A stretch of 16,671 bases of DNA from Promethearchaeota archaeon (GCA_048938005.1 JBHLMQ010000027.1:1-16671), one strand, 5' to 3'; numbered from the stretch's first letter, positions 3,617 through 15,613 are shown. The notes: generated by a model from the sequence alone, not told the origin. Numbers and translations: made by a program.

Positions 3617-3985
3617 TCATAGATCATTTTGGAATCTCCTTCTTCGCAATGTTGAAATGAGATGTCCCTTTGAGAGTAGTTGAATGCCAAATTGTGAGCT
3701 ATACTCTCTAGAAAAATCAGTTATTATATTACAAATCATTATTCCACCTTCAATATTCGTATCGATACATGCTTTATGTAATTGTCGTAATTGTGTAATT
3801 GATATCTCTCTTTTCCAATCTCGGATGAAGACTCCATACGTATTAAGTTTATTTTTTACCATAGCATCAAAAGTCCAGACCTTTCCAGATACACCTTTCA
3901 ACCTTGAAGGACCAATTCTAAACTCATACTTCTCGGAAAATACATTTTTAGCTAAATCAATTAAGCTTTTATCTCCTAATGACAT
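3617..3985 (-). CDS. Stand-alone Mrr-like restriction-endonuclease-fold protein, probably catalytically inactive
   Basis: LKGVSGKVWTFDAMV...GVFIRDWKREISITQLRQL...GGIMICNIITDFSREYSSQFGIQLL matches the Mrr_cat layout (G-x-SG...D...(E/Q)CK...V....V...G-hhh....T..A......I.L), but the (E/Q)xK motif reads F-I-R. Confidence 0.7.
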   Translation of the reverse strand: MSLGDKSLIDLAKNVFSEKYEFRIGPSRLKGVSGKVWTFDAMVKNKLNTYGVFIRDWKREISITQLRQLHKACIDTNIEGGIMICNIITDFSREYSSQFGIQLLSKGHLISTLRRRRFQNDL

Positions 3986-4149: not shown

Positions 4150-4950
4150 TTAATTTTTACTAAAACTAGTTAATTTAAGAAAAGAATATTCTCCCTCACT
4201 ATCAGGATTTTTTTGTACATACTTCAACAAAATTTGTTGTAAAAACTCTAATAATCCTTCATATACTTTTTCACACACAGAAGTACATTTTAGGAAATCA
4301 ATGTCACAATTCTTATTATATTCTGAACAAAATTTTTTCATCTGTAAGGATACTCCTTGAGCAGGTAGAGGCATAACATAATCCCAAGTATCCTTAAAAC
4401 CTGCAAGTTGACTTGGAGGAATTTCTTTGAGTAAATTTCTTAAATTATTTTCGGAGGAACTTTTATTTAACCGATTCTTAATATTTTTTATTTCCTTCTT
4501 GGCTTCAAGTTGGCAGAGAAAAATGTAATATTTCAATAATTTTTCAGCTTCTTTTGTCTTTTCGGAATCAACTATTTTCCAACCATTGGCCCTTTTACAA
4601 CTTATTTCTTTACATTCCGGATTAGAAAAATTCGTAGGATAAATCCAACACTGTGGAGGTTTTATACCTGAATTATGAACTGAACAACCATTCATTTCTT
4701 TCTTATATAGAAAACATTTTGCTTTTTCCTCATCAAATCTCAATTTAAAACTAAAAGTATCGCTTCTAATGAAATCTTCTTTAGTTGCATATCCTTTTTC
4801 AATATACTTTTTAGCTAAAATTTTAGGAACATCGATTTTTATTGAACAACAATCTGCATTACAAACAACTAAGCAATTTGGACCATCTATTGCCGATCTC
4901 ATTAAAAAATTATACTTTATAACAACTTCCCAAAATTTATCGTCAACCAC
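4150..4950 (-). CDS. YkgJ/CxxCxxCC-family cysteine-cluster protein with an extra C-terminal Cys cluster
   Basis: CLVVCNADCC...CFLY......CSVH...KPPQCWIYP...C matches the YkgJ/FliB pattern (C..C..CC, C-x-(F/L)-L, C-x-(I/V)-(H/Y), (R/K)P..C..(Y/F)P). 14 Cys in total. GTG start. Confidence 0.75.
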   Translation of the reverse strand: MVDDKFWEVVIKYNFLMRSAIDGPNCLVVCNADCCSIKIDVPKILAKKYIEKGYATKEDFIRSDTFSFKLRFDEEKAKCFLYKKEMNGCSVHNSGIKPPQCWIYPTNFSNPECKEISCKRANGWKIVDSEKTKEAEKLLKYYIFLCQLEAKKEIKNIKNRLNKSSSENNLRNLLKEIPPSQLAGFKDTWDYVMPLPAQGVSLQMKKFCSEYNKNCDIDFLKCTSVCEKVYEGLLEFLQQILLKYVQKNPDSEGEYSFLKLTSFSKN

Positions 4951-5142: not shown

Positions 5143-7254
5143 ATGTCGCAAAATCTTATAGTTATAGATATTACTGATGAGGAGCACATAATTCTTGATG
5201 GTACACAAAATATGAAAAAAATTACTGGAAATGGAAAGCTTATCATAAAAAATCCGTCACAAACAAGTAGATTATGGAATTTAATATGTAATGTTAAAGA
5301 AAATGTGAATACATCTCTTGAATCTAAAGAAATAAATGTAGGGGTTCTAAATCCTACTCAAGAATTTCTTAAAAAATATGAAATAAGAGAACTTAAAGAT
5401 TCCTCCTTGAAAATTCAGGAAATATTTGATACGGATATATCCAATCCTGGTAAAGTAAATAATACCTTTCTCTATAAAACAGATAATAAATGCAGCTTAA
5501 AGCTCATACTTAAAAATCCTTTGAACTTACCTATCTTCGATATAAAAGTTAAGAGGGATATACCGGTATTTATTCAAGAAATTGAAATGCGAAATCCTAC
5601 TATTGGTAATGCATTCTTAAAAGAAGAAGGAGGAAAAAGAGTACTTTCTTGGGAGTTGATATCTCTAGATGCTGATAATAGAGCTGAGCTTGAGATTTTC
5701 TTTACAGTGAATATAAAAGAATTATCTCCCCAAGAACTTGGAGTTTTGAGGGTTATTTATTCAATTAATAACTATAAATTAACAATGATGAACCCTGAAA
5801 TTAGAGGGTCGACTGATTCGATGAGTGGAATTGAAAGAGATGAGAGCTCTGAACCTGGCATGTGGGAATGTAATGTCGAATTCATTAATGAATCCGAATT
5901 CCAAGTTAGGTTAGAAGACGCAAAGGTTACTCAAAAAATTTTAACTGGGAGTGAAGTTGTAGTCTCTCAGACTCCAAATAGAGTTTTAAATCCTGATGAA
6001 TCTTGGGCTTTTAATTTTCAGGTTGAAGCTAAGGATATACCTGAATTAAGCTCTGAAATTGGATTTACTCCAATGTTTGTAGTAATTCCTAGAGTTTTTG
6101 GTGAAATTATAAAAGAATCAACTTTTTACAATGTATTGAATGCAACTATCCGTAAAGAAATAAATCCACCCGAAGTTGATACATATGTTAATACTGATAT
6201 ATCAATTGTCAATACCATTATCAATAAAGGTTCTTCAGTAATTGAGAAATTTTTTCTATTGGATGAGATTCCATCTGATTTTGTTCCACCCTTAGTTGAG
6301 GATATAAAAATAACTATAGGAGTATTAGATATAAGTTCAAGAGAGGAATTTATCAAAAGAATATTAATAGATCCAAGCGATCAAGATTTTTCTGAAAAAC
6401 ATCAAATTTATGTTGAATTATATAATCTTTCGACTGTATTTCTGCCCGGGAAAGAGATGATAGTTTCATATCCTCTTTTAGCAAGAAATCCACGACCACC
6501 AACTGAAACAAAATATATAACACCTGTAAAAATAGAAATTAATAGTCCAGTAGAAGGTAAATTTTTTATTAAAACACCAGATGAAGAACCAGAATTAAAG
6601 GTTAGATATGTAAAACGTAAATTAAAAACACTCAAAAGCATCAAACCAGGTTTTTCTGAAGGAGAATTTAGTATCGCTGTCAGAGTACAAAACAAAGGAG
6701 ATGTTGAATTGGAAAATGTTCTTGTTAAAGATGTGATTCCCTCTAGTTTTAGTGTAACAGAATTCACACCTCCAGCTGGTACCACACATAAAGTAATACG
6801 AGTAGGAGATCAATCTGAATTACATGTAAGAGTTGCTGAGATAAAAGGGGATTCTTCCGTGAGCATTAATTATAATTGCTCTGGTTCAGGTGATTATCCT
6901 CGTTTTGAACCTGTTATTATTGTTGAAGGAAGGGGTGCTGGAGAGCTATCAAGTTTTTCAAATGCACCTCTAAGAGGTACAGAAACTCCAAAGGCTCACG
7001 TAAGAGATTCACAAGCAGGAAAAATACATGATATATTTATTGAAATATATAAATCCGTTGATCAAGCCCCAACTGGTGAAGTTTTGGGGGATTTATTAGA
7101 AAAAAGAAGAGATGAATTACCCCCAGGACCAATTCTTCATCAAATCTTATCTTATGCTAAGGAAATGAAAGCACTTGGAGATAAAATAATCGTTGGGTCA
7201 TTACGAGACGAAGTAATGAATAAATTAAAAGAATTTAAAAGTAAATATGATTAA
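5143..7254 (+). CDS. 703-aa cytosolic multi-beta-sandwich protein: mu-homology-like N-terminus, DUF11/Ig-like repeats, C-terminal helical bundle
   Basis: Long ORF with an ATG start. It has repeated 'h-x-h-x-N-x-G...h-x-h-x-D-x-IP' Ig/DUF11-like units (aa ~118-190, ~350-445, ~508-580), no signal peptide and no TM helix. The CDS is secure but the function is inferred. Confidence 0.6.
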   Translation: MSQNLIVIDITDEEHIILDGTQNMKKITGNGKLIIKNPSQTSRLWNLICNVKENVNTSLESKEINVGVLNPTQEFLKKYEIRELKDSSLKIQEIFDTDISNPGKVNNTFLYKTDNKCSLKLILKNPLNLPIFDIKVKRDIPVFIQEIEMRNPTIGNAFLKEEGGKRVLSWELISLDADNRAELEIFFTVNIKELSPQELGVLRVIYSINNYKLTMMNPEIRGSTDSMSGIERDESSEPGMWECNVEFINESEFQVRLEDAKVTQKILTGSEVVVSQTPNRVLNPDESWAFNFQVEAKDIPELSSEIGFTPMFVVIPRVFGEIIKESTFYNVLNATIRKEINPPEVDTYVNTDISIVNTIINKGSSVIEKFFLLDEIPSDFVPPLVEDIKITIGVLDISSREEFIKRILIDPSDQDFSEKHQIYVELYNLSTVFLPGKEMIVSYPLLARNPRPPTETKYITPVKIEINSPVEGKFFIKTPDEEPELKVRYVKRKLKTLKSIKPGFSEGEFSIAVRVQNKGDVELENVLVKDVIPSSFSVTEFTPPAGTTHKVIRVGDQSELHVRVAEIKGDSSVSINYNCSGSGDYPRFEPVIIVEGRGAGELSSFSNAPLRGTETPKAHVRDSQAGKIHDIFIEIYKSVDQAPTGEVLGDLLEKRRDELPPGPILHQILSYAKEMKALGDKIIVGSLRDEVMNKLKEFKSKYD

Positions 7255-14359: not shown

Positions 14360-15613
14360 TTAATTCTTATCCTTCTTTTCCAGCCATTCTTTAAAAGCTA
14401 TTGTAGCTTTACCCCTCCAAATCGCCTTTTTGGGGAATTCCTTCTCAAATTCAATAACATCCTCTTCAGAATATTCTAATTTTGTCGCATCCCCAACTTT
14501 CTCAACTTCCCCTAAATCTATAGAAATTTCATACTTTTCACCAGTGATATCTCCTAAAGCATCCATAATTTCTTCAAGATCTTCTTTTTTTCTGACAAGA
14601 ACCGGAACTTTTTCTATTATTTCATCCTCACTAATTTCTTTTTTTTCCTCTTCTTTAATAGCTTTTTCATAGGCTTTCCTTTTCTCTAATCTTTCAAGTC
14701 TTAATTTTTTTATCTCCTTAATAATTTCTTTATAATTATCTTTAAAATATTTTAAACTTACATTAATAAGATCTGAAACATTATCCCATTTTTCCTGCTT
14801 AACAACATTTTCTGCCCAATAGTATAAATCCAGATTTAATTCAATTGTTACGGGTTTTCCTTCCGTATCTAAACTCCCCATTAAAAAACTTAAAATATTG
14901 GCTATTAGAATATCGTTATCAAAAGCAGAGAATCCATACTCGCGTGTAAGTGATGAAAATATACTAAGATTTCCAAAACCCACAACCTTACCTTTATAAT
15001 ATTCTACAACCACCATTAATGGAATTTTAGGGCAGTCTTCTTCAATCCAATTTTCTCCATCATACCGTTTACGCCACCCATTTAATCCAGATTGTAATAT
15101 CCATTCCAATTTTACATTCTTTTCATCTTCAATAAAATCCAAAATTTGTATAGAACAAGAGCTTGAAAAAACAATTCTTTTTATTTGTTCAGTAATTACA
15201 TGGGGTTTAAATCTAGTAATAATGGGCCTCTTCTGAAGATTAACATAATTCACTGAATCATATATCTCGTCTGATACAAATTCAAAACCGAATTTTCGTG
15301 TTAATTCATTTAGATTAGTTTTATTTGCTAAATCTCCTCCAGTAGAACTGGTAATTAAGAGACTCCCTCCATTTCTTACATAACTTTCGAGAGTTTTGAT
15401 TTCACTTTCCTTTAAGCTAATATTTTTCGGTGTTGAGAGAATTATTGTATTATATTTTTTCAAATCACCTAAAGAGGTAAAACCAGTTTCAATTTTGCCC
15501 AATTTATATCCCGATGTAAATAAGAATTGTGTAAATTCAGCAAAACTCGATGATTCAATCGTTAAAATATTATTATGACTATAATCTAGGCCAATTGCTG
15601 CTTTTCCATTCAA
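14360..15613 (-). CDS. Cytosolic GIFT (IFT52/GldG/DUF4350-like) domain protein fused to an RHH-like segment, coiled coil and C-terminal KKAIWRG motif
   Basis: IGLDYSHNN, IILSTP, EIKTLESYVRNGGSLLI...GGD...TNLNELTRKFGFEFVSD, HVIT, GKVVGFGNLSIFS, DNDILIANILSFL. No signal peptide. TTG start. Confidence 0.75.
   Translation of the reverse strand: MNGKAAIGLDYSHNNILTIESSSFAEFTQFLFTSGYKLGKIETGFTSLGDLKKYNTIILSTPKNISLKESEIKTLESYVRNGGSLLITSSTGGDLANKTNLNELTRKFGFEFVSDEIYDSVNYVNLQKRPIITRFKPHVITEQIKRIVFSSSCSIQILDFIEDEKNVKLEWILQSGLNGWRKRYDGENWIEEDCPKIPLMVVVEYYKGKVVGFGNLSIFSSLTREYGFSAFDNDILIANILSFLMGSLDTEGKPVTIELNLDLYYWAENVVKQEKWDNVSDLINVSLKYFKDNYKEIIKEIKKLRLERLEKRKAYEKAIKEEEKKEISEDEIIEKVPVLVRKKEDLEEIMDALGDITGEKYEISIDLGEVEKVGDATKLEYSEEDVIEFEKEFPKKAIWRGKATIAFKEWLEKKDKN

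Follow-up and report, generated by a model that had tools for sequence, protein, structure and literature searches.

A predicted mu-homology domain in a family of multidomain Asgard archaeal proteins

The DNA analysed here (hereafter, the window) is one entire contig of 16,671 bases (GCA_048938005.1 JBHLMQ010000027.1:1-16671; 26–33% G+C) from the 3.72-Mb, 95% complete genome of a Promethearchaeota archaeon of the Lokiarchaeia-type Asgard kind. An open reading frame (ORF) with an ATG start at 5143–7254 (+) encodes a protein of 703 residues, P0001, the whole gene (703 codons and the stop) being defined by the ORF list, translation and homologues; it stands isolated, with a divergent gene upstream and a convergent ORF downstream. 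The N-terminal motif MSxNL[IV][IV]ID[IV]T[DE] is kept among the homologues; hence, the start codon call is right. A preliminary description, made from the DNA alone, likened residues 1–330 (5143–6132) to the mu-homology domain (MHD) of vesicle-coat adaptors and stated that there is neither a signal peptide nor a transmembrane helix. Indeed, neither was found in P0001, whose 19-residue Kyte–Doolittle means do not exceed 1.3; since there is no hydrophobic segment and the N-terminus is acidic, we take the protein to be cytosolic. Overall, P0001 is quite probably soluble and cytosolic, with an MHD made up of its first ~333 residues; two immunoglobulin (Ig)/DUF11-type domains come next, and a small domain of four helices stands after a flexible linker.

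The MHD is a two-sandwich module by which the mu subunits of the adaptor protein (AP) complexes, delta-COP and muniscins bind short peptide motifs. In mu2, subdomain B is inserted in subdomain A, and the chain returns to A at the C-terminus. Subdomain A binds YxxPhi in mu2 and Wxn(W/F) in delta-COP, and a basic patch of the MHD binds lipid. The two subdomains are named A and B in PMC11670165.

According to the AlphaFold2 (AF2) models, sandwich A of P0001 would be composed of residues 1–85 (5143–5397, +; strands 6–18, 24–36, 44–52, 63–69 and 74–81) and completed by the returning strands 312–324 and 327–332 in residues 311–333 (6073–6141, +), the latter assigned from the VIA alignment and from covariation. 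Sandwich B (residues 86–216; 5398–5790, +), recognized in relatives by PF00928 (and, in one of them, by PF10291) and DUF11-like there as well, would be inserted into A, as in eukaryotic MHDs. Residues 217–310 (5791–6072, +) comprise a conserved linker and an extra beta-sandwich (strands 217–233 and 239–310), with a predicted local distance difference test score (pLDDT) of ~77–93 in the N-terminal model. This second, archaea-specific insertion (residues ~239–310) would precede the return of the chain, an arrangement that is modelled and supported by covariation, like that of A and B. Thus, the extra insert at ~228–310 followed by a returning strand, proposed in the preliminary description, is reproduced by the model.

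Downstream of the MHD-like module, the full-length AF2 model (mean pLDDT 71.2) gives a beta-rich Ig-like domain at residues 334–480 (6142–6582, +; strands 334–477, block pLDDT 63–92), and no Pfam match was returned for residues 339–488 even at E ≤ 10. The next beta-sandwich (residues 484–594; 6592–6924, +) is of the DUF11 type: PF01345 scores 21.2 bits at residues 508–570 of P0001, under its cut-off of 24.6 bits, and TIGR01451 (a DUF11-type repeat) scores 20.3 bits, while PF01345 is matched in 28/28 homologues at E ≤ 1 (best 7.9e-10). It is followed by a poorly conserved linker (residues 596–616; 6928–6990, +), gappy in alignment A4, with the lowest column identity in P0001 (0.50) and pLDDT < 50, which is probably disordered. 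The C-terminal domain (residues 625–702; 7015–7248, +) carries a PPGP[VI]LHQ motif and is modelled as four helices (625–640, 645–658, 663–677 and 685–702); it is present in the Lokiarchaeia-type orthologues and left uncovered by the Thorarchaeota-type orthologues of ~595 residues. The order MHD–Ig–Ig–helical bundle read earlier from the DNA is, therefore, that of the model. Comparison of the P0001 domains against one another with hhalign gave no pair above 10% probability.

The AF2 model of residues 1–340 was built from alignment A2 (29 sequences, residues 1–340) and reached a mean pLDDT of 89.9 and a predicted template modelling score of 0.81; its residues 1–333 display the two beta-sandwich subdomains, A and B, that define an MHD. 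A Foldseek search of this model against 350,542 chains retrieved the MHDs of AP2 mu2, AP1 mu1, AP3 mu3A and delta-COP at E 4.5e-10 to 4e-8 (e.g., 4en2_A, with a root-mean-square deviation of 4.4 over 252 columns), and the matches listed included one non-MHD, an integrin at rank 47. With VIA-align 2, run against 48,161 representatives without the Foldseek pre-filter, ranks 1–10 were all MHDs. Model residues 3–326 were laid on mu2 170–435 with 225 residues aligned; the alignment begins at model residue 1–4, opposite mu2 170, and extends to model residues 325–328, which lie on the C-termini of mu2, mu4 and delta-COP; for mu2, its very last residue is included. About 100 of the 324 model residues were left unaligned to mu2, which fits an extra insert ahead of the returning strands. 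Since ranks 1–10 of the 48,161 are MHDs and none of 14 control genomes matches the MHD profile (see below), the likeness is more than chance.

Independent information on the topology was obtained from covariation, computed without any structure by per-site pseudolikelihood direct coupling analysis (plmDCA) on 488 family sequences aligned to the A2 model (effective number of sequences 234); this method was preferred, as the mean-field analysis and an unconverged GREMLIN-style run were too noisy. The three top-ranking pairs (89–204, 89–123 and 91–204) lie within sandwich B. Between residues 1–30 and 313–332, 7 of the top 100 pairs were found vs. 1.07 expected (p 1.1e-4), led by the pair 18–322 at rank 4, whereas the insert (241–306) shared none of the top 100 pairs with 313–332 vs. 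2.4 expected. A scan of 18,336 long-range blocks peaked at (1–34) × (306–325), and the signal was stronger with 488 sequences than with 435. The coupling of residues 1–34 with 306–332 fits strands returning to the first sandwich rather than tandem Ig domains; it is support, not proof.

The sequence profiles add a further, partial line of evidence. PF00928 (Adap_comp_sub; profile length 259, gathering cut-off 31.6 bits) matches 9/28 of the aligned close homologues at E ≤ 1 with 26.2–29.3 bits, all under the cut-off, always at residues ~94–215 on profile positions ~104–226; in an orthologue from the same genus it scores 30.7 bits, also below the cut-off. When the A2 profile was searched against 1.84 billion representatives, it retrieved 233 proteins of many architectures (E ≤ 1e-3), 163 of them with E ≤ 1e-10, e.g., P0154 at E 1.1e-38. 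The PF00928 cut-off was passed by 9/102 of the distant representatives scanned (4/40 and 5/62), and in P0154, P0165, P0167, P0178 and P0187 the match spans profile positions 12–236, equivalent to residues ~3–218 of P0001. Sandwich B (fragment D2) of two Hodarchaeales relatives, taken alone, scores 24.1 and 26.1 bits with PF00928, and in one of them the muniscin model PF10291 also matches at the corresponding positions (18.7 bits).

Of 301 Asgard genomes, 55 had a PF00928 match with E ≤ 1e-3, and in 13 the cut-off was exceeded; none of the 14 control reference genomes was matched. Ten of the 12 above-cut-off places listed overlap finds made by A2 or by the paralogue of P0001 in the source genome, and the eleventh aligns to A2 with an hhalign probability of 96.4%. 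Because 11/12 of these places fall in the superfamily, what Pfam recognizes as a “mu C-terminal domain” in Asgard archaea very probably belongs to the same superfamily as P0001.

Taken together, the Foldseek matches, the VIA ranks and the covariation bear out the N-terminal MHD seen in the preliminary description, and its reading of the module as a relative of vesicle-coat adaptor modules gains from the MHDs retrieved by AlphaFold plus Foldseek. The opposite outcome envisaged there, simple tandem DUF11/Ig domains, was not what emerged: the topology is modelled as interleaved, and residues 1–34 are coupled with 306–332. Its five motif likenesses hold as to their order and extent, judged by PF00928 at residues ~94–215, by the profile span 12–236 in the relatives and by the VIA alignment. 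The profile match to Adap_comp_sub, looked for as a check, occurs in the relatives and is absent from P0001 itself.

The family is common in its phylum, as the phyletic profile proposed earlier now documents. A search of 5.8 billion proteins yielded 271 relatives of P0001 at E ≤ 1e-3, the best 120 being almost all 698–709 residues long; the named ones come from Promethearchaeota or from Lokiarchaeia-type Asgard metagenome-assembled genomes. With the A2 profile, 212/301 sampled Asgard genomes (~70%) were positive at E ≤ 1e-5, as were 68 of the 90 high-quality genomes. The Thorarchaeota orthologues (~595 residues) are publicly annotated as “DUF11 domain-containing protein”, and 54 Hodarchaeales/Heimdallarchaeia members (P0394–P0447) as “HEAT repeat domain-containing protein”. 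In the latter form (734–740 residues), an N-terminal HEAT_2/PBS-lyase HEAT region (56 bits) is fused ahead of the MHD-like module; PF13646 was detected in 47/54 of these relatives (e.g., L125:1624-3834 (+), on contig C4 of genome G139), and the HEAT-fused form aligns to A2 with an hhalign probability of 97.2%.

Several other fusions and relatives were recorded. In P0187, TPR repeats come after the MHD-like region (PF00928 37.4 bits, residues 12–220). A TPR_1 match in P0223 stays under the cut-off (25.8 vs. 27.8 bits), and in P0240 (1322 residues; a cluster member is named Candidatus Borrarchaeum) NACHT and NPHP3_N score close to their cut-offs. The source genome harbors one paralogue of P0001, a protein of 722 residues on contig C65 (L100:3483-5648 (-)). 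It lies 155 nucleotides upstream of, and on the same strand as, the gene of a 556-residue BBS7/BBS2-like beta-propeller protein (L100:1658-3325 (-); PF23743 72.5 bits, BBS2_Mid 43 bits). The paralogue and the propeller are paired, co-directionally, in 4/4 loci of the same taxonomic family and, convergently, in two sister-family loci, and the pair is absent from six others.

A number of results weigh against an MHD in P0001. The PF00928 cut-off is not reached by P0001, which shows no match at E ≤ 1 (nor was there any such match in the source genome), and neither its fragment D1 (residues 1–85) nor its fragment D2 has a Pfam match. In the two Hodarchaeales relatives, D1 alone has no match at E ≤ 10 and adds only ~4.5 bits, the profile signal being almost wholly that of sandwich B (residues ~86–216); therefore, the homology of sandwich A is carried by structure and topology. 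Sequence searches of the PDB with P0001 and alignments A1, A2, A3 and A5 never found an AP mu chain; the matches were BabA, PrgA, Csm2, a fimbrial subunit, the gamma1-adaptin ear (E 0.32) and HEAT/alphaRep proteins. The alignment is shallow, and only two of the five AF2 models are confident (mean pLDDT 89.9 and 87.2 vs. 66.3, 62.7 and 53.2), while in the full-length run the pLDDT falls below 50 at residues 216–238 and in the insert at 247–309. The plmDCA maps are noisy, with an only ~2-fold intradomain enrichment, and the first bins were picked after an earlier run on overlapping data. The two strands of P0001 taken as equivalents of those forming the YxxPhi site in mu2 are not specially conserved across the superfamily (1.46 and 1.25 bits vs. 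a mean of 1.53). The longin model PF01217 (Clat_adaptor_s) has no above-cut-off match in the source genome and none in the P0001 gene. Finally, neither of the two divergent genes upstream, at 4150–4950 (-) and 3617–3985 (-), was found in 15 loci of other Asgard families, which thus share no neighbourhood with the window.

The most serious competing explanation is that P0001 is an ordinary archaeal DUF11/Ig-repeat scaffold, whose likeness to MHDs is generic or convergent and implies neither common descent nor an adaptor-like role. DUF11 is the only Pfam family that P0001 reaches at E ≤ 0.01, in many relatives the B sandwich clears the DUF11 cut-off just as readily as that of PF00928, or more so, and D1 by itself is silent toward MHD profiles. 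The ESM Atlas contains no model of P0001, and its nearest language-model clusters are archaeal “DUF11 domain-containing proteins”; once clusters of the DUF11 type are set aside, a eukaryotic one ranks best among those with a name (PF00928 in 38% and muHD in 13% of its members), and its score of 0.75, under the noise level stated for the tool, makes it a lead only. Against this, MHDs stand 2–5 Z units above every other fold in the VIA search, with nearly twice as many residues aligned (211–225 vs. ~120), and the match involves a rare interleaved topology backed by covariation. Moreover, in four proteins of the family whose true DUF11 domain, at the C-terminal side, was used as a control, this domain matches DUF11 and never PF00928 or muHD, two different MHD models match at equivalent positions, and the reference genomes yield no PF00928 match. 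In view of these data, a plain DUF11 scaffold appears unlikely.

A functional variant of the MHD reading concerns the tail, i.e., that P0001 is an adaptor linked to the ESCRT complexes of endosomal sorting, its four-helix tail being a Vps28-C-like module docking on ESCRT-II. Vps28-C is a four-helix bundle, and four helices are modelled at the C-terminus of P0001. Asgard multidomain proteins with a C-terminal Vps28-C, including a combination of adaptin appendage, longin and Vps28-C, have been described by Makarova et al. 2024 (PMC10936438, accessible text), and a Vps28-C-like protein is encoded on contig C82 of the source genome as well. However, hhalign comparison of tail alignment A4 gave 0.55% with the Vps28 of this genome and 0.92% with the C82 protein; PF03997 was found in the source genome only at the Vps28 locus (C97, L083) and at the C82 locus, and the tail had no Pfam match at E ≤ 10. 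The tail is, in addition, uncovered in distant orthologues (BLAST query coverage 76–85% for 12 complete ones). With hhalign values below 1%, the identification of the tail as Vps28-C gains no support, and this variant is improbable. The C82 protein itself (L084:808-2601 (-); at least 597 residues; PF03997 28.2 bits at its Vps28-C-like C-terminus) possibly belongs to the multidomain Asgard proteins with Vps28-C that Liu et al. and Makarova et al. described.

That the model is an AlphaFold artefact, a memorised fold drawn from a shallow alignment of 29 sequences, is very improbable: three of the five models do stay at a mean pLDDT of 53–66, and the full-length run, made from a less diverse alignment, is poor around the insert, but the strands of D1 and D2 and those that return fall at almost the same positions in both AF2 runs, the structure-free covariation of 488 sequences finds the same contact between the N-terminus and residues 306–332, and the matches of the Pfam MHD profiles in relatives have the correct location and order.

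If P0001 does possess an MHD, it would be one of unusual make-up. Its identity with the C-terminal MHDs of AP mu1–mu4 is 8–12%, and ahead of the returning strands there is a third sandwich of ~100 additional residues, which eukaryotic MHDs lack. The MHD-like module begins at residue 1–5 and is followed by the Ig/DUF11 domains and the helical tail, in contrast to the architecture of AP mu and delta-COP (longin, linker, C-terminal MHD). Because no longin domain stands in front, P0001 is not a mu-adaptin orthologue in architecture. AP mu and delta-COP assemble with two large HEAT/ARM subunits and a sigma/zeta subunit; in the source genome, Adaptin_N-like matches are weak or borderline only, and there are no adjacent candidates. 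The MHD of delta-COP and the muHD of muniscins or SGIP1/Syp1 (PF10291) are also C-terminal, whereas that of P0001 is N-terminal with the added insert; the delta-COP and muniscin MHDs have F-BAR or longin domains as their N-terminal partners. DUF11 proteins are typically repeat proteins that are secreted or lie at the cell surface. With the DUF11 (PF01345/TIGR01451) repeat proteins of archaea and bacteria P0001 shares the DUF11-type residues 484–594, but it lacks a signal peptide, has interleaved sandwiches and carries a true DUF11 domain devoid of an MHD signal.

The conservation pattern may hint at where such a module operates. The most conserved residues of the superfamily, G31/N37/R43/W45 in the first part of sandwich A and E234/P238/W241/C243/N249/S251/F253 at the start of the insert, cluster at the junction between sandwich A and the insert, and the covariation pair 39–252 (rank 7) joins the two patches. 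This junction may represent a family-specific functional site without a counterpart in eukaryotic MHDs. The isoelectric point of D2, 8.0, says little on peptide or lipid binding.

As to the mechanism, we infer that the module of P0001 is homologous to the eukaryotic MHD and not merely convergent, and that its B sandwich would form a bridge between MHDs and archaeal DUF11 domains. The protein could then act as a hub of protein–protein interactions, the MHD binding a partner or linear motif and the Ig domains and helical tail recruiting other partners. A role of P0001 in membrane traffic, in coats or in cargo handling is put forward as a hypothesis; the HEAT_2 region in front of the module in Hodarchaeales is a hint, suggestive only, of a HEAT/ARM partnership.

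The gene neighbourhood yields no functional clue. The small, conserved divergent genes upstream at 4150–4950 (266 residues; a weak CxxCxxCC zinc/iron-chelating match) and 3617–3985 (122 residues; a weak match to Mrr_cat) occur beside the gene in 72 and 69, respectively, of the 79 related loci, including those at 43% identity. Directly upstream of the ~595-residue orthologue, in 12/15 loci (L085–L099), there is a co-directional gene of ~230 residues with a metallo-beta-lactamase fold (Lactamase_B_3, 58–82 bits). Elsewhere in the window, the ORF at 14360–15613 (-) encodes 417 residues matching ABC_transp_aux (39.5 bits) and the IFT52 GIFT domain (31.4 bits).

Regarding earlier reports, IPR022775 is presumably the longin-type N-terminal domain of AP mu/sigma, not the MHD. 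That Asgard archaea have a mu C-terminal domain had already appeared in a figure legend by Eme et al. 2023 (PMC10307638), where, in the accessible text, the AP domains of Asgard archaea are called “sparsely distributed” and “not fused to each other”; the sparse distribution given there differs from that of the family profile used here. The “mu/sigma subunit” of Xie et al. 2021, in the accessible part of that article, corresponds to IPR022775, and the accessible part of Makarova et al. 2024 (PMC10936438) treats adaptin appendage domains, not the MHD. The main text of two structure-based Asgard surveys (PMC12962969 and PMC13734099), as far as accessible, mentions no mu domain. No literature modelling or characterising an archaeal MHD was found, though supplements may list such proteins.

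A more far-reaching scenario can be offered tentatively, as a possibility that is more doubtful than not. The eukaryotic MHD (that of AP1–5, COPI, TSET, muniscins and stonins) might descend from this Asgard-wide family, itself born by the insertion of a DUF11-type sandwich into another one; the HEAT-fused Hodarchaeales form would then be left over from a proto-adaptor whose solenoid and MHD already acted jointly, and the Asgard proteins would bind linear motifs of their partners for sorting or membrane recruitment.

Clathrin adaptors and COPI read sorting signals through the MHD, so its origin bears on how vesicle coats arose. Earlier reports of a mu-type domain in Asgard archaea amounted to no more than a sparse Pfam/InterPro match. 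The present analysis changes this picture: an interleaved fold is predicted with high confidence, in a family that occurs in most sampled Asgard genomes, seemingly bridges MHDs and archaeal DUF11 domains, and is HEAT-fused in the closest relatives of eukaryotes. The family is tractable for expression, structure determination and partner screens, including in cultured Lokiarchaeia.

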